This document shows, in pieces, positions 4,500 to 14,359 of a stretch of DNA of 64,000 bases; positions within the stretch are counted from its first letter, which is position 1; every line of letters begins with the position of its first letter. The stretch is from an uncultured Candidatus Saccharibacteria bacterium. Lineage in GTDB: Bacteria; Patescibacteriota; Saccharimonadia; Saccharimonadales; 2-12-FULL-41-12. The notes beneath the pieces were generated by a model. It saw nothing but the letters and a program-made list of their open reading frames with translations, was not told where the DNA came from and made no database searches. Made by a program: the position numbers and the translations under genes. The stretch is taken from positions 149,108-213,107 of the forward strand of contig CAZFPJ010000002.1 of assembly GCA_964521095.1 (NCBI GenBank). Reading direction: 5' to 3'.

Positions 4500-5804
4500 A
4501 TGACAGAGAAAAATGTCGAGGATATTCTTGCGAAGCAAGAGGGAGTTGCCATGAACGAACTTCCCCATACTACTACGCCCCAAAGTTCTCCTAGTGTTTT
4601 ACATAGAACCAGGCGAGCGATAGAGATGGGGGTGGTTGCTTTAGAGGTTACCCCTGCAAACGAAACCTTACGCTATGGGGTTTTCGTTGCTACTCTTGCA
4701 GCGACTAAAGATCCTATTCTATCTGCCGGGGCTTTTGGAGTCGCAACCACTGCTATCGAAGGAGTAGGGGCAACGGCTTCCGCAAGTTTACTTGCGTCGC
4801 CCACCGGAGATAAAACAACTAGATGGATTAACAATAAAATTGAAGATTTTGGAGTATCAAAAGACGCTACTGTACCTCCTGTAGCCAAGGCAGGGGTAGC
4901 TCTTTTGGGTGGCTCGGCCATTGTTGTTGGTGTAAAACACAGAGAAGACCCTAACAGGAGCTTTACGGACAATTTCAGGTATGGAGTTGGTTCTGCTGTT
5001 GCTCTTGGCGGAGTTTGCGCTGCCCAGGGATATCTTATGGCAGAAGGCATCACCAATCCAGAGCCAGAAACTATTGGGGGCGCCTTGATTGCTATTGGTG
5101 GTTTGGTCGCCTTTGGAAAGTGGGCAAGAGCTAAATTAGAACAGAAAAAGCTGATACCAGAAGCTACGGACAGTTATATCGAAGAGTTCGACTTGCGAGT
5201 CAGGCTGACAGATGACCCAAGGCAGATAGAGGAAGCCTCGGCTTTAGAGCAAGCGATTTGGGACAAAAATAATTTCGGCTCACTAGATGAGTATAGGAAA
5301 TATGACGATCAGTGCAGAATGTTTGTTGCAGAGGAACAGGGTGAGATAATCGGCGTTACCAGAATGTTTTATGGTGGTCCAGAGTTGCCGCCTTTTATGG
5401 ATTTGCCGTTTTATGACAAAGCCGAGAAAGAGCAAATTGAAAAATCCTGTTTGACTGGCGACATAGAGGAGTTAGGTACGACAGGAATTGATAAAGAGAA
5501 AGATAAAGCACCGAAACATGTCGTTGCTTTAGAGATGTGGCGACTTGCCTACAGAGACGCTATGCAAAGAGGTGTAAAAAACTGGGGTATCATCATGGAG
5601 CCTGAAAGAGTCGAGAAGATGAATCAGAACTTCGGCTTTAAGTTCAAGCAGCTTGGTCCGGCAAAAGACTATCAGGGTGGCGATTGCGCTCCATTTGTTA
5701 TGGACTTACAAGAGGTAGACGCACACATGAGCCAAACTCTGCCCGAGCTATACGATTGGTTTGTCAAGCAGCCCCTGGTCAAAAGACCAAAAGACCAAAA
5801 ATAA
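4500..5804 (+). CDS. membrane-associated protein with C-terminal GNAT-like N-acyltransferase (FeeM/OlsB-like) domain
   Basis: The track ORF starts at 4377 inside pdaD, so the ATG at 4500 (MTEKNVEDIL) is more plausible. The N-terminal half has several Ala/Gly-rich hydrophobic segments. The C-terminal half (EQAIWDKNNFG..MFVAEEQGEIIGVTRMFYGG..EELGTTGI) resembles N-acyl amino acid synthase-type GNATs. Confidence 0.5.
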   Translation: MTEKNVEDILAKQEGVAMNELPHTTTPQSSPSVLHRTRRAIEMGVVALEVTPANETLRYGVFVATLAATKDPILSAGAFGVATTAIEGVGATASASLLASPTGDKTTRWINNKIEDFGVSKDATVPPVAKAGVALLGGSAIVVGVKHREDPNRSFTDNFRYGVGSAVALGGVCAAQGYLMAEGITNPEPETIGGALIAIGGLVAFGKWARAKLEQKKLIPEATDSYIEEFDLRVRLTDDPRQIEEASALEQAIWDKNNFGSLDEYRKYDDQCRMFVAEEQGEIIGVTRMFYGGPELPPFMDLPFYDKAEKEQIEKSCLTGDIEELGTTGIDKEKDKAPKHVVALEMWRLAYRDAMQRGVKNWGIIMEPERVEKMNQNFGFKFKQLGPAKDYQGGDCAPFVMDLQEVDAHMSQTLPELYDWFVKQPLVKRPKDQK

Positions 5805-5849
5805 TAAAGCCTAGTGCTATTCTTTGGTTATATCTTATAATTAGCATTA

Positions 5850-8018
5850 ATGCTTACGCTTTTACTCGGTTTGAGTTGTTTGATCTTGATAATCCTCGCT
5901 TTGACGGTTTATTTTAGTAACTCAAGATCAAAGACAAATGTATATCTTTCCTGGTTTATTCTTGGGGGGTTATTCTGGGTTTTTACAAACCTATTGACCA
6001 ATCTATATTTGACTAACAATAATTTTGTTCAAGGCTTGTTATTTACTCGTTTAGCATTGGTCGGCGCATCTATATTGCCAGTTGCTTTTTTGTTTTTTGC
6101 CATGGCCTTTGTCGGCAAGGAGCAAAGGATGTCAAAATTATCAAAAGCAGGCTACATGACTCCTATTTTATTATTGCTGTTGACAACCTTTACTGACTAT
6201 AACGCCAAGATTATAGACAAAGATGTAGTTACCGGGCAAGCATATTACTTGATAATCTTGATTTTCATAAGTTACTTTTTGTACGGGACAATCTTGCTGG
6301 CTCAACACTATAAAAATGCAGACGCACAGGTAAGGACTCAGTTAAAGTTTATTTTTTTGGGGATAATCTTGAGTGTAGTGCCTGGATTGGTTGTTAATGG
6401 CATACTGCCGGCTATGGGCAACACCAGCCTATCTTATTATGGCTCTGCCGTCGTGATATTTTTTGCGTTCTTTACCTCGATTGCAATTATTAAGCACCAG
6501 CTTTTTAATGTGAGGGCCGCCATAGCTCGGACAGTAGCGTATGGTCTGTTTGTATCGTTTTTAAGTGCTGTATATATTGCAATCATTTTTATTCTGTCTA
6601 GCAAATTAGTTGGCGCCGGATCTGTGTTTGTCAAGCAAGTTGCCCCTATTGCGACGGCTATTTTTCTGGTATTTACTGCCCCTTATTTCAAGCGTATTTT
6701 TGACCGAATTACCAACCGGCTCTTTTATCAGGATGCTTACGATACACAAGGTTTGTTGGACGATTTTAACAAAGCTCTCCTAGATAATATTGAGTTGCCG
6801 ATTTTGTTGAGACATGCAACCTCTGTTATACAAGAGAATCTAAAGAGTCAGTTTTGTACGGTTATCGTTAACACCGAAGGACCAGCGTTAATCAGAAACA
6901 TTGGTACGGCAGACTTGCATTTTTCTGGGGTGCAATTGGCTCAATTGCGACTTGGGCTTGCCGATGAAAACTTCAAGATAGTTGTAGAAGATTTTAACTC
7001 AGAAGACAGTCATATAAAAAGACTGCTCAAGTCTAAAAATGTTGCCTTAGCAATTAGACTTGACGCTAGCTACAGAACAGGTAAGGACTCGTTAGCCTAC
7101 TTGATGTTAGGGCCCAAGAGAAACGGCGGTCCGTATAGCAAAAAAGACCTCAAAATTATAGAAATTATTGCTGACGAACTGGTCATCGCCATCCAGAACG
7201 CTCTGCGTTTTGAAGAGATTCAGGGGTTCGCGTCTACTCTGCAAGAAAATGTCAACGAGGCAACTGCCAAGCTAAAGCATACGAACGAAAAGTTAAAAGA
7301 GATGGATCAAACCAAAGATGAGTTTATTAGTATGGCTTCTCATCAGCTTCGTACACCCCTCACATCTGTTAAGGGCTACCTCAGTATGGTGCTAGAAGGC
7401 GATGTCGGCAAAGTGACGCCAGAGCAAGAAAAACTGCTTAACCAAGCGTTTATTAGCTCTCAGCGCATGGTTTATCTGATAGCCGACCTGCTAAATGTGT
7501 CTCGCCTCAAAACCGGTAAGTTTGTGATTGTGTCTGCCCCGACTGACCTAGCAGAGGTGGTGCAGGGTGAGATAGATCAGTTAACAGAGGTCGCGAAAGG
7601 TAAAAACATTAAGATTAACTATAAACGCCCCAAAGAATTTACTAAACTCATGTTGGATGAAACAAAGATTCGCCAAGTTATAATGAATTTTATAGACAAT
7701 GCTATCTACTATACCCCTGCTAAGGGTAATATAACGGTGATTGTCAAAGAAGACAGAGGCAATGTGTATTTTAGCGTCAAAGACAACGGTATGGGTGTAC
7801 CAAAAGAAGATCAAAAACATCTGTTTACCAAGTTTTACAGAGGTACAAATGCCCGAAAAGCTCGCCCAGATGGTACTGGTTTGGGCCTCTTTATGGCCAA
7901 AAAAGTGGTTTCTGCTCAGGATGGCAATATTTTGTTCGAGAGCCGAGAGGGCAAGGGTAGTACCTTTGGCTTTAGTTTCTCAAAATCCAAGCTTCGCGTC
8001 GAAGATAAACAAGGTTAA
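5850..8018 (+). CDS. sensor histidine kinase with polytopic N-terminal membrane domain
   Basis: About 270 aa of repeated TM helices. H-box SMASHQLRTPLTSVKGY, N-box FIDNAIYYTP, G-boxes VKDNGMGVP and GTGLGLFMAKK. Confidence 0.9.
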   Translation: MLTLLLGLSCLILIILALTVYFSNSRSKTNVYLSWFILGGLFWVFTNLLTNLYLTNNNFVQGLLFTRLALVGASILPVAFLFFAMAFVGKEQRMSKLSKAGYMTPILLLLLTTFTDYNAKIIDKDVVTGQAYYLIILIFISYFLYGTILLAQHYKNADAQVRTQLKFIFLGIILSVVPGLVVNGILPAMGNTSLSYYGSAVVIFFAFFTSIAIIKHQLFNVRAAIARTVAYGLFVSFLSAVYIAIIFILSSKLVGAGSVFVKQVAPIATAIFLVFTAPYFKRIFDRITNRLFYQDAYDTQGLLDDFNKALLDNIELPILLRHATSVIQENLKSQFCTVIVNTEGPALIRNIGTADLHFSGVQLAQLRLGLADENFKIVVEDFNSEDSHIKRLLKSKNVALAIRLDASYRTGKDSLAYLMLGPKRNGGPYSKKDLKIIEIIADELVIAIQNALRFEEIQGFASTLQENVNEATAKLKHTNEKLKEMDQTKDEFISMASHQLRTPLTSVKGYLSMVLEGDVGKVTPEQEKLLNQAFISSQRMVYLIADLLNVSRLKTGKFVIVSAPTDLAEVVQGEIDQLTEVAKGKNIKINYKRPKEFTKLMLDETKIRQVIMNFIDNAIYYTPAKGNITVIVKEDRGNVYFSVKDNGMGVPKEDQKHLFTKFYRGTNARKARPDGTGLGLFMAKKVVSAQDGNILFESREGKGSTFGFSFSKSKLRVEDKQG

Positions 8019-8033
8019 ACCTTGCAACAGGGG

Positions 8034-10625
8034 TTAGCGGAGGCTAATCGTGGTGTCGTTTTCTAGGGAGCCAGTTTGTTCGGTTGGCCGAGGTTTAGTT
8101 TGAGTAGATTTAGCTTTTTCTACGATAGCGCTACCCATGAGTAACTTCTTTTTATTGGTGGTTTTGCGTCGTCTGGTTCGTTTCTTCTTTGTAGCTACCG
8201 TAGCCTCGCTAGGGTCGTGCTCTTGCTTTAGCTCTTTGTCACCCAAGGTTTCTGGGTTATAGGCTGGCTTGTCTGCTTTTACGGGTTTAACTACAGAGGT
8301 GGGCGTAGAGGGGGTTTGCTTGGGGGTTGGCATCTTTTTGTCTCCCAATCCATGACGGTTATGAATATAGCCCTCTACCTCTGTTACAGACAAGGCATAT
8401 TTACGACGGCTTTGGTCTATGATTGCTTCCGAAAAGTCTTCGGAAAAAGGGGATAAGTCTGTAGTAGTAGCCGAAAAAGCCTGCACTTTTTCGCCAGCAA
8501 TAGTCATGCTGATGACAAAATTGCGATTATGCATATGCACCAGGTCGTGTTCGACAAATTTTGGTTCAAAATATTTTAACATAGTTCTGGCATCATCTGC
8601 GCTGGTTCGAAAAGATATAATAGACCCAACATTTCCAAAAACAGCGTCTTTCACGCTCTGCATCATCTGGGCGATGTATTGGTTAGCGACAGTCAGGTTT
8701 AGTCCATATTTTCGGGCTTCGGACAAGATAGTAGCGAACGAATCGGTGGCAAAGTTTTGGAATTCGTCTACATAAAGATAAAACGGCTTACGGTCTTGCA
8801 CGGGGATGTCGGCTCGGCTCATAGCCGCCATCTGTATTTTTGTAACCATCAATGCACCCAAAAGGCCGGCGTTATCTTCGCCAATTAGCCCTCTAGACAG
8901 GTTAACCACCAATATTTTTTGGCCATCCATAATCTCGCGGATATTAAAACCGCCCTTTGGCTGACCGATGATGTTCCTCACCAAGGGGTTGGCGGTAAAA
9001 GCGCCAACTTTGTTTAGAACCGGAGCAACTGCTTCGGCGGCAAATTTGTCGTTCCAGCTGGCAAATTCTACAGTCCAAAAGTTGCGCACCACGGGGTCAT
9101 TAACATGCTCTAGTACTTCATTTCGGAATTTTTTATCTGTTAATATTCGGGTTATGTCCAGCATGGTAGCATCGGGGTAGTCGAGTAAGGCTAGTATGCT
9201 ATAGCGCAAAATATACTCTAGCCTTGGCCCCCAAGAGTCAAACATGCGCTTTAAGACACCGATTAACTCAGAGCAGGCATGAGTACGGAGTTTCGGATCA
9301 CTCACCTCTAAGGGGTTAAACCCTATAGGATAGTCGCTGTCTGAAGGGTTGAAATAAACCACATCATTAACTCTGTTTGCGGGGATTCGTCTTAAAACAT
9401 TCAACGCATAGTCACCGTGAGGGTCGATTACTGCTATGCCTTGTCCAGAGAGGATGTCGGCAGTGGTTAAAAGTTCTAGTAGACCAGATTTTCCAGCGCC
9501 AGTTTGACCAATTATATACAGATGACGACCCCTGTCGCTCCTTGGCATACCAAACAGTGTATTGTGTCCTCTAAAGTTGGTGTTGGCCATCATGCTGACC
9601 TCTGAAGATTGCTTGATCGGCAGGTTAGCTGGCGGTTCGGCTGTGGTGGCATTGGCCCAGAGTATATTTGGCGTTTCTACATTGGCGTGAGGCAGATGAT
9701 ACAGGCTAGCCAACTCCTCAATATTGAGTGTCATCGAGCGCTTGCCGATAAGGCGATTTTGGTAGGCCCTTACCCCTGTTGCTCCAGAGATAGTTTTGTT
9801 GGCCATAAAACCATTTAGATAAGTAGAATTAAACTGTTTAAAACCAGCAACTATAGACTGCAGGCGCATTCGAGCATGGTCTGGGGAATTTTTGCCAGAA
9901 TATACGATCCGCACCGTAGCGCTGTATGCCAGCTTGTGGCTCTTTTCCTCTGCTCCAGAGGCACGGGCAGACTCGTGTTCGGCTAGTTTTGGTGCTGTAC
10001 CCGCCTTTTGCTCTGGTGGCGCGCTAAGAGCTCCTAGCAAGCCCACATAACTACTACTGCTACCACCACCGGCGGTTCGTATATTTTGGGCATATCGCTC
10101 GCTTTTTTTGTACCAACCGCTTTGTGCGGGCCGTACGACTACTTGTATCCAGGCGTCTTCGTCTTCGGCAAATTGAGCCAGACTGGCAGTAATAGCTGCC
10201 AATGGGTCTACCTCGAAGCTAGGGAAGGTTTTAATCGGCAACGGGTCTGGTGCAATCAGCTTAAGCTCGGTCGACACATACTGTGACCCCTGTTTTTGGT
10301 CTTTTGAATAATCTTGAACTTCCGAGATATGAACATTAGGATACTGAGCATATATTTGGTCTTGAATGTATTGTTTTAGACGAGTTGGGCACCAAACAAA
10401 GAAGTTAATCCGGCCATCTACAACGGCTATCTCAAAACTAATTTGATCATGGTTAACAGATGTAAACAGGCCTGTAGATTGCTTGGTAAGTAGTCCGTGT
10501 ATTGCAGCGAGCATTTGTTCGGCGGCTAGTTCCTTTTTTTCATTATTTCGGGGTACTTGGAGCAATAAAACAGAGGTTTTTTCGGATATAACAGCTTGCT
10601 TTTTCTTAAATATCATTATTTGCAA
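8034..10625 (-). CDS. VirD4/TraG-like (type IV coupling protein family) P-loop ATPase with long N-terminal domain and basic C-terminal tail
   Basis: 863 aa. Walker A IIGQTGAGKSGLLE, Walker B PFYLYVDEFQNF, tail ATKKKRTRRRKTTNKKK. No other T4SS genes in the window. Confidence 0.7.
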   Translation of the reverse strand: MQIMIFKKKQAVISEKTSVLLLQVPRNNEKKELAAEQMLAAIHGLLTKQSTGLFTSVNHDQISFEIAVVDGRINFFVWCPTRLKQYIQDQIYAQYPNVHISEVQDYSKDQKQGSQYVSTELKLIAPDPLPIKTFPSFEVDPLAAITASLAQFAEDEDAWIQVVVRPAQSGWYKKSERYAQNIRTAGGGSSSSYVGLLGALSAPPEQKAGTAPKLAEHESARASGAEEKSHKLAYSATVRIVYSGKNSPDHARMRLQSIVAGFKQFNSTYLNGFMANKTISGATGVRAYQNRLIGKRSMTLNIEELASLYHLPHANVETPNILWANATTAEPPANLPIKQSSEVSMMANTNFRGHNTLFGMPRSDRGRHLYIIGQTGAGKSGLLELLTTADILSGQGIAVIDPHGDYALNVLRRIPANRVNDVVYFNPSDSDYPIGFNPLEVSDPKLRTHACSELIGVLKRMFDSWGPRLEYILRYSILALLDYPDATMLDITRILTDKKFRNEVLEHVNDPVVRNFWTVEFASWNDKFAAEAVAPVLNKVGAFTANPLVRNIIGQPKGGFNIREIMDGQKILVVNLSRGLIGEDNAGLLGALMVTKIQMAAMSRADIPVQDRKPFYLYVDEFQNFATDSFATILSEARKYGLNLTVANQYIAQMMQSVKDAVFGNVGSIISFRTSADDARTMLKYFEPKFVEHDLVHMHNRNFVISMTIAGEKVQAFSATTTDLSPFSEDFSEAIIDQSRRKYALSVTEVEGYIHNRHGLGDKKMPTPKQTPSTPTSVVKPVKADKPAYNPETLGDKELKQEHDPSEATVATKKKRTRRRKTTNKKKLLMGSAIVEKAKSTQTKPRPTEQTGSLENDTTISLR

Positions 10626-12963: not shown

Positions 12964-13632
12964 ATGAATAAATTAAGTAAACTTTTTATGCTTGCTGTAG
13001 CTACTTCGACGCTGGCTTTTAGCGGTGTTGCATCGGCTGCTCAAGTAGACGGCGGTAATATCTATTACTCGCAAAATGTAACTCAAAATAGCGCGTTTGG
13101 TGATCCAACCTCTGCTAACCCATGTGACACAGTATTGTACAGGGTTCGTTTGCATAACGGTGGCCCAGAAGTACTAGATAATGTTAATGTGCGGATTGAC
13201 ATGCCTTCTAACGAAGGTACTAGTTTTAGCTCTACAGCTACAACTACTGCAAGCAACGGTGTTCCAGCTGTAGTTAGCGATACTGCTTCTGTGACTTCGT
13301 CTGCTACAACTCGAATTAGCTTTGTGCCAGGTAGCGCCCAGCTACTCGATGCCAATCATGGTGTCATCTCATCTTTATCAGACAGTCTTGTGACTACTGG
13401 TGTTGATGTTGGTAGTGTTGGTGTTTCGACTCAACAGATTCGTTTTGTTCAGTTTAGGGCTTCTTTAAGCTGCCCTACAACTCCTCCAGAGACTCCAGAA
13501 AACCCTGGTGTTCCTACTCCAGAAACTCTTCCAGAGACTGGTGCAGGTAACGCAGTTGCAGTTTTTGTTGCTGTTACTGCTGTAAGTACGCTTGCTTACT
13601 CTGTTGTTTCTAGGCGTTTGAGTCGTCAGTAA
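12964..13632 (+). CDS. LPXTG-anchored cell-surface protein (sortase substrate)
   Basis: SD AGAGAGGAA. Signal peptide ...FSGVASA/AQ. C-terminal sorting signal LPETG plus a hydrophobic stretch plus RRLSRQ. Confidence 0.85.
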   Translation: MNKLSKLFMLAVATSTLAFSGVASAAQVDGGNIYYSQNVTQNSAFGDPTSANPCDTVLYRVRLHNGGPEVLDNVNVRIDMPSNEGTSFSSTATTTASNGVPAVVSDTASVTSSATTRISFVPGSAQLLDANHGVISSLSDSLVTTGVDVGSVGVSTQQIRFVQFRASLSCPTTPPETPENPGVPTPETLPETGAGNAVAVFVAVTAVSTLAYSVVSRRLSRQ

Positions 13633-13760
13633 TTTGCCTGTGGATAAACCACTAGCAAAAAGCACTCAGTTGTGCTATGGTATCAAGTAGTTTAACTACT
13701 ATGAGCACTGACTGACCGCTCTAACAACAAACTAAACAAAAATCTTTAAAATAGAACTAG

Positions 13761-13806
13761 AATCCCTCGGGGTAGTGGCGGGAGCTATTGCCTTGGGGGA
13801 TTTTTA
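13761..13806 (+). terminator. possible intrinsic terminator after the LPXTG gene
   Basis: AATCCCTC...long loop...GGGGGATT followed by TTTTT. The loop is unusually large. Confidence 0.4.
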
Positions 13807-13874
13807 TTGTTCAAGAATTTGTAGAAACACCCCTGTTAATGATATGATTAGCGGGTTAACTTTTCTGTTTAGAC

Positions 13875-14044
13875 GGCCCCATCGTGCAGGCGGCTAGGAC
13901 ACCGGGTTTTCACTTTTGCAATAGGGTGAAAACTGCCAGTGGCAGTTTGCAAGGAAACCTTCCGATGAAAGCTATGCTTTCAATAGCGAAGTTTCGGGCT
14001 CGCCGGAGGTGAGTCGATTCCGAATCGAACCAGCCTTGAGGTAT
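13875..14044 (+). pseudogene. tRNA-Glu-like sequence interrupted by a 104-nt structured insert (element copy A, 13918-14021), with degenerate anticodon stem and acceptor 3' strand
   Basis: The 5' half, GGCCCCATCGT..GGCTAGGACACCGGGTTTTCA, is nearly identical to the real tRNA-Glu downstream. After CAATAGGG the insert follows, then GAGTCGATTCC, a 12-nt extra segment and CCTTGAGGTA (versus CCTTGGGGTC). Confidence 0.55.
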
Positions 14045-14066
14045 ACTAAACAAACTATAGTTAGAC

Positions 14067-14141
14067 GGCCCCATCGTCTAACGGCTAGGACACCGGGTTT
14101 TCATCCCGGCAATAGGGGTTCGATTCCCCTTGGGGTCACCA
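14067..14141 (+). tRNA. tRNA-Glu (anticodon UUC), CCA encoded
   Basis: Manual cloverleaf: acceptor GGCCCCA/TGGGGTC, anticodon stem CCGGG/CCCGG with loop TTTTCAT, T-arm AGGGG-TTCGATT-CCCCT, then ACCA. Confidence 0.95.
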
Positions 14142-14150
14142 ATCTAAAAC

Positions 14151-14174
14151 GCTCACCTTTATGGTGGGCTTTTT
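14151..14174 (+). terminator. intrinsic terminator after tRNA-Glu
   Basis: GCTCACC-TTTAT-GGTGGGC followed by TTTTT. Confidence 0.7.
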
Positions 14175-14194
14175 AGATTGATTGTGTCATCGAA

Positions 14195-14325
14195 CACCTA
14201 TTGTCGTGGCAATAGGGTGAGATATGCCGGTGGCATATCGCAAGGAAACCTTCTCTTGAAAACTGGTTTTCAAAGATGAAGTTTCGGGCTCGCCGGAGGT
14301 GAGTCGATTCCCCTTGGGGTCACCA
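14195..14325 (+). ncRNA. structured element copy B (core 14209-14311) fused to an intact tRNA-Glu 3' end (…GATTCCCCTTGGGGTCACCA)
   Basis: Aligns with copy A over ~103 nt. The two internal hairpins differ by four compensatory base-pair substitutions. There is no 5' acceptor strand, so it is not a tRNA. Confidence 0.55.
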
Positions 14326-14332
14326 AGAAAAC

Positions 14333-14359
14333 GCCCAACCGTAAAAGGTTGGGTTTTTT
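14333..14359 (+). terminator. intrinsic terminator / possible attenuator upstream of pyk
   Basis: GCCCAACC-GTAAAA-GGTTGGG followed by TTTTTT, 40 nt before the pyk ATG. Confidence 0.75.

Follow-up and report, generated by a model that had tools for sequence, protein, structure and literature searches.

Small inserts with a conserved RNA-type fold at tRNA genes of Saccharibacteria

Miniature inverted-repeat transposable elements (MITEs; e.g., Correia and RPE), REP/REPIN sequences and the IS200/IS605-derived PATEs either feature terminal inverted repeats and short target duplications, or need a cognate transposase along with a strictly defined target tetranucleotide. Integrases that target tRNA genes duplicate the tRNA 3′ segment as attL and attR. 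Class IIC group II introns use insertion sites that follow terminator hairpins, and in retrohoming the bottom strand is cleaved at +9/+10. Tandem inversion duplications and fold-back template switching occur at quasi-palindromes. The mobile tRNA introns and disrupted tRNA genes of archaea, as well as intron transposition in Thermoproteales, have been reviewed (PMC4033280), and group II introns have not been reported in Patescibacteria (PMC13011429). We analysed a 64,000-nucleotide stretch of DNA from an uncultured Candidatus Saccharibacteria bacterium (contig CAZFPJ010000002.1; hereafter, the window), in which two copies of a short structured insert, called here the module, flank a tRNA-Glu gene. 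The two copies are members of a large Saccharibacteria insert family that matches no Rfam family and no element in the searched literature. Each of the known systems compared shares one or two features with the module and fails at least one defining feature tested, and the element fits none of the known classes. We favour, at roughly even confidence, the reading that the module is a small, non-autonomous, selfish mobile insert of a new kind.

The single tRNA gene of the window, found by both ARAGORN and the Rfam tRNA model (61.7 bits), is an intact tRNA-Glu(UUC) that maps to positions 14067–14141 of the forward strand and has an encoded CCA. All features of the locus described in this report are on the forward strand. 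An earlier sequence-only reading had placed two copies of a structured RNA element on either side of this gene, and the sequence, ARAGORN and Rfam all bear this out. Modules A (13927–14013) and B (14218–14303), the limits of which were refined by comparison with the intact gene, are 87 and 86 nt long, respectively. The window contains exactly two occurrences of the 34-mer GAAGTTTCGGGCTCGCCGGAGGTGAGTCGATTCC, compared with none expected from 100 shuffles. Single-sequence folds and a three-way alignment revealed that the two modules fold alike into the same three hairpins, and the hairpins and compensatory differences that had been listed for the two copies are correct. In module A, the order of elements is UGA, P1 hairpin, GCAAGG, long P2 hairpin, GGG and P3 hairpin. 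Each module replaces two T-arm nucleotides between nt 51 and 54 of the gene, the insertion point being located after AGGG and before TCGATT. Covariance model R1, derived from relatives of the modules, has only two matches in the window, module A at 98.9 bits and module B at 103.2 bits.

Relatives were identified by a pattern scan based on two conserved segments, using an exact 25-nt pattern and one genome per species. The family includes at least 116 loci; the matches listed come from about 96 assemblies, nearly all of which are annotated as Saccharibacteria. Module size ranges from ~85 to 92 nt. The consensus obtained from an alignment of 113 copies reads (G)GUGAR, P1 hairpin, GCAAGG, long P2 hairpin, GGG and P3 hairpin. 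Across these 113 copies, standard pairs are present in 98.2% of the cells, compared with 81.6% when partners are shuffled and about 28–44% when the pairing partners are displaced by 1–3 columns. Double-change cells number 565 (141 in shuffles), and compensatory changes of several types occur at 20 of the 34 pairs. One P3 position is a G·U pair in 104 of the 113 copies. Because the opposite strand would feature an A·C mismatch at this position, the fold belongs to the tRNA sense strand. The conserved fold of the module is strand-specific and of the RNA type. Selection on the folded structure, proposed from the two window copies, therefore holds, the covariation among 113 copies being far stronger than two copies could show. 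Two further roles were considered and rejected: a small peptide open reading frame (ORF), because the covariation pattern is RNA-like, and a guide-RNA role for the variable stems, because the same P1 sequence is found at different tRNAs.

Model R1, built from the 113 relatives, gives ~155 matches in related loci. The matches include divergent variants in which the base of the P2 helix also co-varies, and a second module type that has a different middle domain. Common to all variants are the 5′ GGUGAR, P1, GCAAGG, the run of G residues, and P3, in which the G·U pair is retained. R1 can be used directly for a census of the family. The module could also be seen as plain duplication debris at one locus, in which compensatory changes arose by chance, and the sequence-only reading had anticipated this verdict if homologs or covariation were lacking. 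The decay of the tRNA-Glu 5′ fragment beside module A is in line with debris; the existence of more than 150 related copies, spread over about 96 assemblies among the matches listed, and their massive covariation refute this explanation, the probability of which is negligible.

The comparison with Rfam, proposed at the outset, assigned the modules to no family. In the window, only the tRNA reaches the gathering threshold of Rfam 15, and nothing is detected on the modules at E ≤ 10 between 13700 and 14420. Only tRNA and tmRNA were found in the related loci, at gathering and permissive thresholds alike. Neither copy A nor copy B yields a complete cloverleaf with ARAGORN or the Rfam tRNA model. 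The suggestion that the element is a tRNA-derived non-coding RNA is not supported, as the module has no similarity in the Rfam tRNA model and the surrounding tRNA sequence is the flanking target. Literature searches by topic and by sequence string returned no description of the element, and a 2026 report on tRNA introns in Patescibacteria (PMC13011429) is silent on it.

The module resembles MITE-, REPIN- and PATE-type repeats, being ~100 nt in size, multicopy and ORF-less, with hairpins near both ends, intragenomic spread and an occasional location in RNA genes or terminators. Unlike MITEs, however, it has no terminal inverted repeats, as its ends (GGUGAR at the 5′ side and GUGAC/G at the 3′ side) resemble each other directly and not in inverted form, and 1–2 target nucleotides are lost instead of being duplicated. 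Small repeats also differ from the module in lacking a junction of three helices, with joining strands that are conserved, a G·U pair, a sense-strand tRNA-loop target, and long partial target duplications accompanied by an inverted native arm. Compared with the IS200/IS605-derived PATEs, the module carries its P1 and P3 hairpins near both ends, and its left flank is defined by just a G or GG.

Within 400 nt of an intact tRNA gene, 94 modules were found; 93 of them are on the same strand as the gene and one is on the opposite strand. If both strands were equally likely, such a bias would by far exceed chance. The adjacent genes belong to 17 tRNA types (Lys, Leu, Pro, Gln, Gly, His, Met, Arg, Glu, Val, Trp, Ser, Thr, Ala, Ile, Phe and Cys). 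Alignments showed that the flanks of the modules are copies of the 5′ or the 3′ part of the neighbouring tRNA. Within these truncated copies, insertions occur in the T loop, the anticodon loop and the D region, and the module replaces 1–2 nt of the target and is almost invariably preceded by a G. Further targets are the loops of terminator-like hairpins and other module copies. Among the three candidate explanations offered by the sequence-only reading, the evidence most favours a small structured mobile insertion, but the tRNA-Glu T-arm is too narrow a target, since 17 amino acids and several loops are concerned. A split tRNA assembled via the two modules was also considered and rejected, as the modules are homologous and not complementary.

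Archaeal tRNA introns are similar to the module in several respects: short, related inserts are found at many non-canonical positions, in the D, anticodon and T regions, of many tRNAs, several may occur in one tRNA, and they are thought to transpose. However, the archaeal inserts are true introns that interrupt complete genes, feature a bulge-helix-bulge motif and rely on a splicing endonuclease, whereas modules reside in a bacterium and have their junctions in truncated host copies, next to an intact gene, and their excision restores no tRNA. The group I introns found in tRNA genes of Patescibacteria (PMC13011429) share with the module both the phylum and the use of tRNA loops as insertion sites. 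These are self-splicing ribozymes of a few hundred nucleotides that interrupt the anticodon loop of functional genes, whereas the module is ~87 nt long, has no Rfam intron match and resides in pseudogene fragments. A group I or group II intron was rejected because no Rfam intron model matches and because a module of 85–92 nt is far smaller than a ribozyme of ~200 nt or more.

One could still imagine a new type of spliced tRNA intron, with functional interrupted copies. The insertion sites are indeed loops, including position 37/38 in tRNA-Pro and tRNA-Leu, the L076 locus looks like a multi-intron tRNA, and tRNA introns are known in Patescibacteria (PMC13011429). In total, 104 modules were removed in silico, using 270 combinations of boundary and filler for each. 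A tRNA spanning the junction was restored in only two of the 104 removals, both doubtful, and the modules are therefore not introns. Interrupted copies are devoid of the other half of the gene, be it the 5′ or the 3′ half, an intact gene is found alongside the modules located within 400 nt of a tRNA gene, neither group I nor group II introns give a signal in Rfam, and 1–2 native nucleotides are missing at the site. The spliced-intron explanation is largely refuted, and we consider it highly improbable.

The tRNA-linked modules occur in two mirror-image layouts, and the window features one copy of each around tRNA-Glu. In the B-type layout (62 copies), the intact tRNA is followed by a symmetric terminator and by an inverted tRNA 3′ part, which starts exactly at the complement of CCA. 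Then come a short loop, about 10 native nucleotides, the module, the remainder of the T loop up to CCA, and a terminator. In the A-type layout (31 copies), the upstream region and the tRNA 5′ part, extending to the D region, the anticodon loop or the T stem, precede the module, which is followed by 5–10 native nucleotides, the native site in inverted and uninterrupted form, a short spacer that often contains TATAAT, and the intact tRNA. In 16 of 25 A-type copies, the fold-back is centred 6–11 nt downstream of the module. B-type fold-backs, identified by aligning the reverse strand of the flanks to the tRNA and by direct reading, have inverted arms that map to tRNA nt ~41–67. Each tRNA-linked module arm is accompanied by an inverted native arm that is free of the module and spans the site in its native form, including the nucleotides that the module displaces. 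For instance, in L018 the series CGGGG, module, TCGAATC is followed by G and by GATTCGAACCCCG. According to our own tally, T-loop insertions are found in about 55 B-type and 14 A-type copies, and D-region insertions in eight A-type copies and no B-type copy, which indicates that the shorter side of the gene is the duplicated side.

In B-type loci (e.g., L001, L056 and L077), the terminator that follows the tRNA lies symmetrically between an A tract and a T tract, and the CCA complement TGG comes immediately afterwards. Together with the tRNA 3′ part and the inverted arm, the terminator makes up a single long palindrome in register. A promoter in the inverted arm was considered and rejected, as the spacing is wrong.

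The B-type layout raises the question of site-specific integration. Integrase elements leave a duplicate of the tRNA 3′ segment, and the module might be an attP arm that remained beside the displaced fragment once most of the element had been lost. The segment from the T loop to CCA is repeated downstream of the intact gene, and the classic signature of intact tRNA, intervening DNA and direct repeat is thus present, in the B-type only. Arrays of repeated units, the small cargo ORFs found between units in L113, and the occurrence of the same layout in other insert families also fit an attachment-site origin. Several observations do not. The DNA between the repeats, usually ~60–100 nt long, is mostly made up of the terminator and the inverted arm, and no element body was found. 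A-type copies duplicate the 5′ part of the gene, with insertions in the D region and the anticodon loop, and modules are also inserted in other modules and in plain hairpins. Strand-specific covariation of the RNA type, including a conserved G·U pair, would not be expected of DNA arms bound by proteins. In the 13 kb upstream of the locus in the window, and among the ORFs beside the six scanned off-tRNA loci, no integrase was detected, ORFs next to the L036 and L021 units match no Pfam family, and two scans of 2.9 million viral contigs yielded no module match. Relics of integration, one of the three candidates of the sequence-only reading, are thus weakly supported: the attR-like 3′ duplication of the B-type stands, but the upstream region of the window and the six scanned off-tRNA loci yielded no integrase, and the 5′-fragment layouts and the RNA-type covariation are left unexplained. 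We regard integration scars as improbable.

In L113 (1447–2509), ORFs of 131 and 240 residues are located between two repeated B-type tRNA-Pro(GGG) units, and the second ORF has a sub-threshold match to HEPN_AbiU2. The two ORFs replace the centre of the palindrome, suggesting that small cargo can sit there. ORFs next to the units of L113, L036 and L021 matched no recombinase family.

Other inserts of ~50–190 nt, either unrelated or partly related to the module, are found in the same B-type layout of intact tRNA, terminator, inverted T-arm, insert and 3′ fragment. These map to L019 (7689–7950), L028 (3803–4080, and 3150–3453 on the minus strand), L071 (2117–2260) and L073, downstream of tRNA-Asp (minus strand, ~5730–6018). 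The inserts of L019 and of the tRNA-Arg locus of L028 begin with GGCGARAA and a P1-like hairpin, and the L028 region has no Rfam match. Some modules located away from intact tRNAs (L061, L065 and L073) lie in the loop of terminator-like GGG...CCC hairpins between housekeeping genes. They are mostly in sense orientation and feature neither duplication nor fold-back.

Signs of movement are found at many loci. Nested modules are inserted after the CGGG that precedes P3 in the recipient module, with the next two nucleotides replaced (L029, L069 and L085). Five modules surround a single tRNA-Leu(UAG) in L085 (1–2420, minus strand), and three interrupt a tRNA-Glu(CUC) 5′ part in L076 (7640–8000), in the D loop, in the anticodon loop at 32/33 and in the T loop. 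Tandem arrays occur in L018 and L038, and truncated and decayed module copies are also present. The sister assemblies UBA2952 (L019) and UBA2951 (L096) have a common upstream flank at the tRNA-Pro(GGG) locus; one carries the module in the anticodon loop, the other in the D region, and a separate fold-back accompanies each insertion. Identity at variable columns is 0.77 for modules at different tRNAs of the same genome, compared with 0.67 for modules that share tRNA and layout in different genomes and 0.66 for unrelated pairs. The excess of similarity within genomes is significant (permutation p<1e-4).

In the upstream copy of L085, one module is located at 37/38 and two are in tandem in the T loop, one of which carries a hairpin inserted in P3. 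The 3′ GTGAC of this hairpin-bearing module doubles as the start of the next one, and a downstream copy contains a module nested in a second one. In L076, two of the three modules are divergent variants, and the locus sequence ends before the tRNA 3′ end.

We favour a mobile insert because such an element accounts for most of the observations, namely the fold, the location of sites after a G in hairpin loops, the targeting of tRNAs, the truncated copies, the inverted arms, the similarity within genomes and the polymorphism of sites. According to the mechanism that we propose, insertion would occur in the sense strand right after a G, usually in the G-rich 5′ strand of a stem, with replacement of 1–2 nt, in parts of hairpins that are single-stranded. 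The host genomes appear to carry single-copy tRNA genes, and for this reason the insertions that persist would be those hitting a spare partial tRNA copy beside the intact gene. Since duplications are found only at tRNA targets, whereas insertion at plain hairpins is simple, the data suggest that the rearrangement lets a hit on an essential single-copy gene survive. The module may first enter one DNA strand only, with RNA or single-stranded DNA as the intermediate. The arm that carries the module and the inverted arm that lacks it may then correspond to the two strands of one heteroduplex, with the turn 6–15 nt away from the module. This geometry is proposed because the module is always present in one arm and never in the inverted one, and because it is so close to the turn. 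A template switch to the native copy would restore the tRNA gene, and the B-type palindrome, centred on the terminator loop, is compatible with a snap-back at that hairpin.

Parts of this scheme have known parallels. As with class IIC group II introns, insertion would be structure-directed and confined to one sense strand, with a second event about 8–10 nt from the site; however, the module is far too small for a group II ribozyme and has no intron-encoded protein. Fold-back duplications share with the module loci the forward-inverted-forward order and a junction centred on the terminator hairpin, but fold-back switching accounts for the rearrangement only, and not for a conserved structured insert that is always in one arm. 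The B-type layout of scaffold and 3′ flank recalls the omega-RNAs of TnpB and IscB, a resemblance only: no TnpB/IscB-type ORF was found next to the examined copies, and Rfam gave no match. In its most specific form, the hypothesis posits a new class of mobile element, in which a ~90-nt structured RNA or single-stranded DNA copy would be inserted into one strand at exposed loops of tRNA genes and of other G-rich hairpins by a trans-acting activity. The native strand would survive, and a fold-back linking the two strands into the chromosome would give rise to the fragment with the module, the inverted native arm and the restored tRNA gene. We put forward this form tentatively and consider it, as a whole, rather unlikely.

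The main rival to the mobile insert is a non-coding RNA, located at tRNA loci, that benefits the host. In this view, RNase P or 3′ processing would release the module as a leader or trailer RNA, which would bind a protein or regulate the expression or quality control of tRNAs; processing signals or a closing helix could come from the tRNA fragments and the inverted arms. The strong constraint on the fold, the invariant joining strands and the conserved G·U pair are all features of a functional RNA. The module is almost always on the tRNA strand and mostly follows the orientation of flanking genes in off-tRNA cases, and A-type copies are placed for co-transcription as the 5′ leader of the intact tRNA. 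A host role is, in contrast, hard to reconcile with the patchy distribution of the module, which is associated with different tRNAs and loop positions in each genome, even in sister assemblies, or with the nested, tandem, truncated and decayed copies. The adjacent hairpin is 3′ of the module in the A-type and 5′ in the B-type, and this mirror symmetry is better explained by a mechanism than by a single RNA design. Moreover, the inverted arm matches the native site and does not co-vary with the decayed flank (e.g., in L001), and the same layout is occupied by unrelated inserts. A host function therefore seems unlikely to us, though a good deal less so than integration scars.

Several observations weigh against the selfish mobile insert that we favour. 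In 39 of 55 B-type loci, the trailers (35 nt after the intact tRNA and after the 3′ fragment, respectively) are no more alike than unrelated sequences, yet the 18-nt 3′ fragment is perfect in 18 of these 39 loci and the module is intact. The preservation of fragment and module next to diverged trailers, which is among the points that speak for a host RNA, could result from selection on a transcript made of the module and the tRNA 3′ end, or from gene conversion with the neighbouring tRNA and modules, and hints at a function. Similarly, the similarity of modules within genomes could stem from gene conversion and not from transposition. No pair of empty and filled alleles was recovered at one site, and movement is deduced from distribution. 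The mobilising mechanism, including the single-strand heteroduplex step, is one that we infer from sequence patterns. The exact 25-nt pattern used for ascertainment inflates the apparent conservation of the module. Finally, a Pfam search of the upstream ORFs of the window and of those beside the six off-tRNA loci revealed no integrase, transposase or reverse transcriptase domain.

The enzyme responsible is not encoded beside the examined copies. The neighbours recognised by Pfam are housekeeping genes (KsgA and ArsR, for instance, beside off-tRNA copies) and a VirD4-like ATPase, and neither an integrase nor a relaxase was found among the ORFs scanned between 1 and 13.6 kb of the window.

If the module is mobile, it represents an ORF-less element of ~90 nt, with an RNA-type fold, that locates tRNA loops in very small genomes, where tRNA genes appear to be single-copy, and leaves a reproducible signature of rearrangement. 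It would point to an unrecognised insertion activity, possibly RNA-mediated or specific for single strands, whose enzyme would be worth searching for. Should insertion into one strand prove true, the system would be compact and structure-guided, with a built-in sparing of essential single-copy targets. As a host RNA, the module would instead constitute a widespread new class of non-coding RNA tied to tRNA loci, in a phylum with poorly known RNA biology. Either way, the tRNA fragments, inverted repeats and extra terminators will confuse tRNA annotation, the prediction of genomic islands and assembly in Saccharibacteria.

The order of features at the window locus follows the two layouts. The A-type copy starts with a tRNA-Glu 5′ fragment (13875–13926) that corresponds to gene nt 1–51. 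The fragment is decayed, its unbroken match to the gene ending at nt 37, and this pseudogene piece, delimited by alignment to the intact gene, is called as a tRNA by neither ARAGORN nor the Rfam model. The hexamer TTAGAC precedes both this fragment (13869–13874) and the intact gene (14061–14066), and the duplication that had been noticed is confirmed by the location of both copies in sequence and alignment. Further upstream, TGATATGAT (13840–13848) is an extended −10-like motif that may, on the slight evidence of reading by eye, be the original promoter of tRNA-Glu; a consensus scan made no call. On the 3′ side of module A, comparison with the gene identified TCGATTCC (14014–14021), the native T-loop and T-stem sequence that continues beyond the insertion site. 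It is directly followed by GAATCGAACC (14022–14031), an inverted copy, or splint, of the native uninterrupted GGTTCGATTC, and the centre of the resulting hairpin is 7.5 nt after the module. Copy A had been described as lying inside a near-complete tRNA-Glu with a degenerate 3′ strand. This description is incorrect: the sequence 3′ of the module contains neither a decayed T stem nor a decayed acceptor strand, but TCGATTCC and the fold-back GAATCGAACC.

On the other side, the intact gene is followed by a terminator-like hairpin with a T run (14151–14174), detected by the same consensus scan. In ATCGAACACCTATTG (14189–14203), which comes next, the native variable loop and the 5′ part of the T-arm (gene nt ~41–58) are repeated in inverted form, as identified by reverse-strand alignment and reading. 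After a short loop, the forward variable loop and the 5′ strand of the T stem, CAATAGGG (14210–14217), directly precede module B. The B-type fragment TCGATTCCCCTTGGGGTCACCA (14304–14325) runs from the T loop to CCA, and it is the perfect tRNA-Glu 3′ end that had been reported, with 21/21 identity to gene nt 55–75. A second terminator-like hairpin with a T run (14333–14359), found by the same scan, separates the fragment from pyk. An exact-protein look-up with the pyruvate kinase of the window, carried out to retrieve strain variants of the locus, returned nothing on record.

Upstream of the locus, the window encodes an 863-residue coupling ATPase of type IV secretion similar to VirD4/TraG (8034–10625, minus strand), 3 kb away. 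A 222-residue ORF (12964–13632, plus strand) ends with an LPETG-type sorting motif and a hydrophobic tail and has no Pfam match. It is followed, at 13760–13803, by an unusually long hairpin of 20 pairs with a T run.

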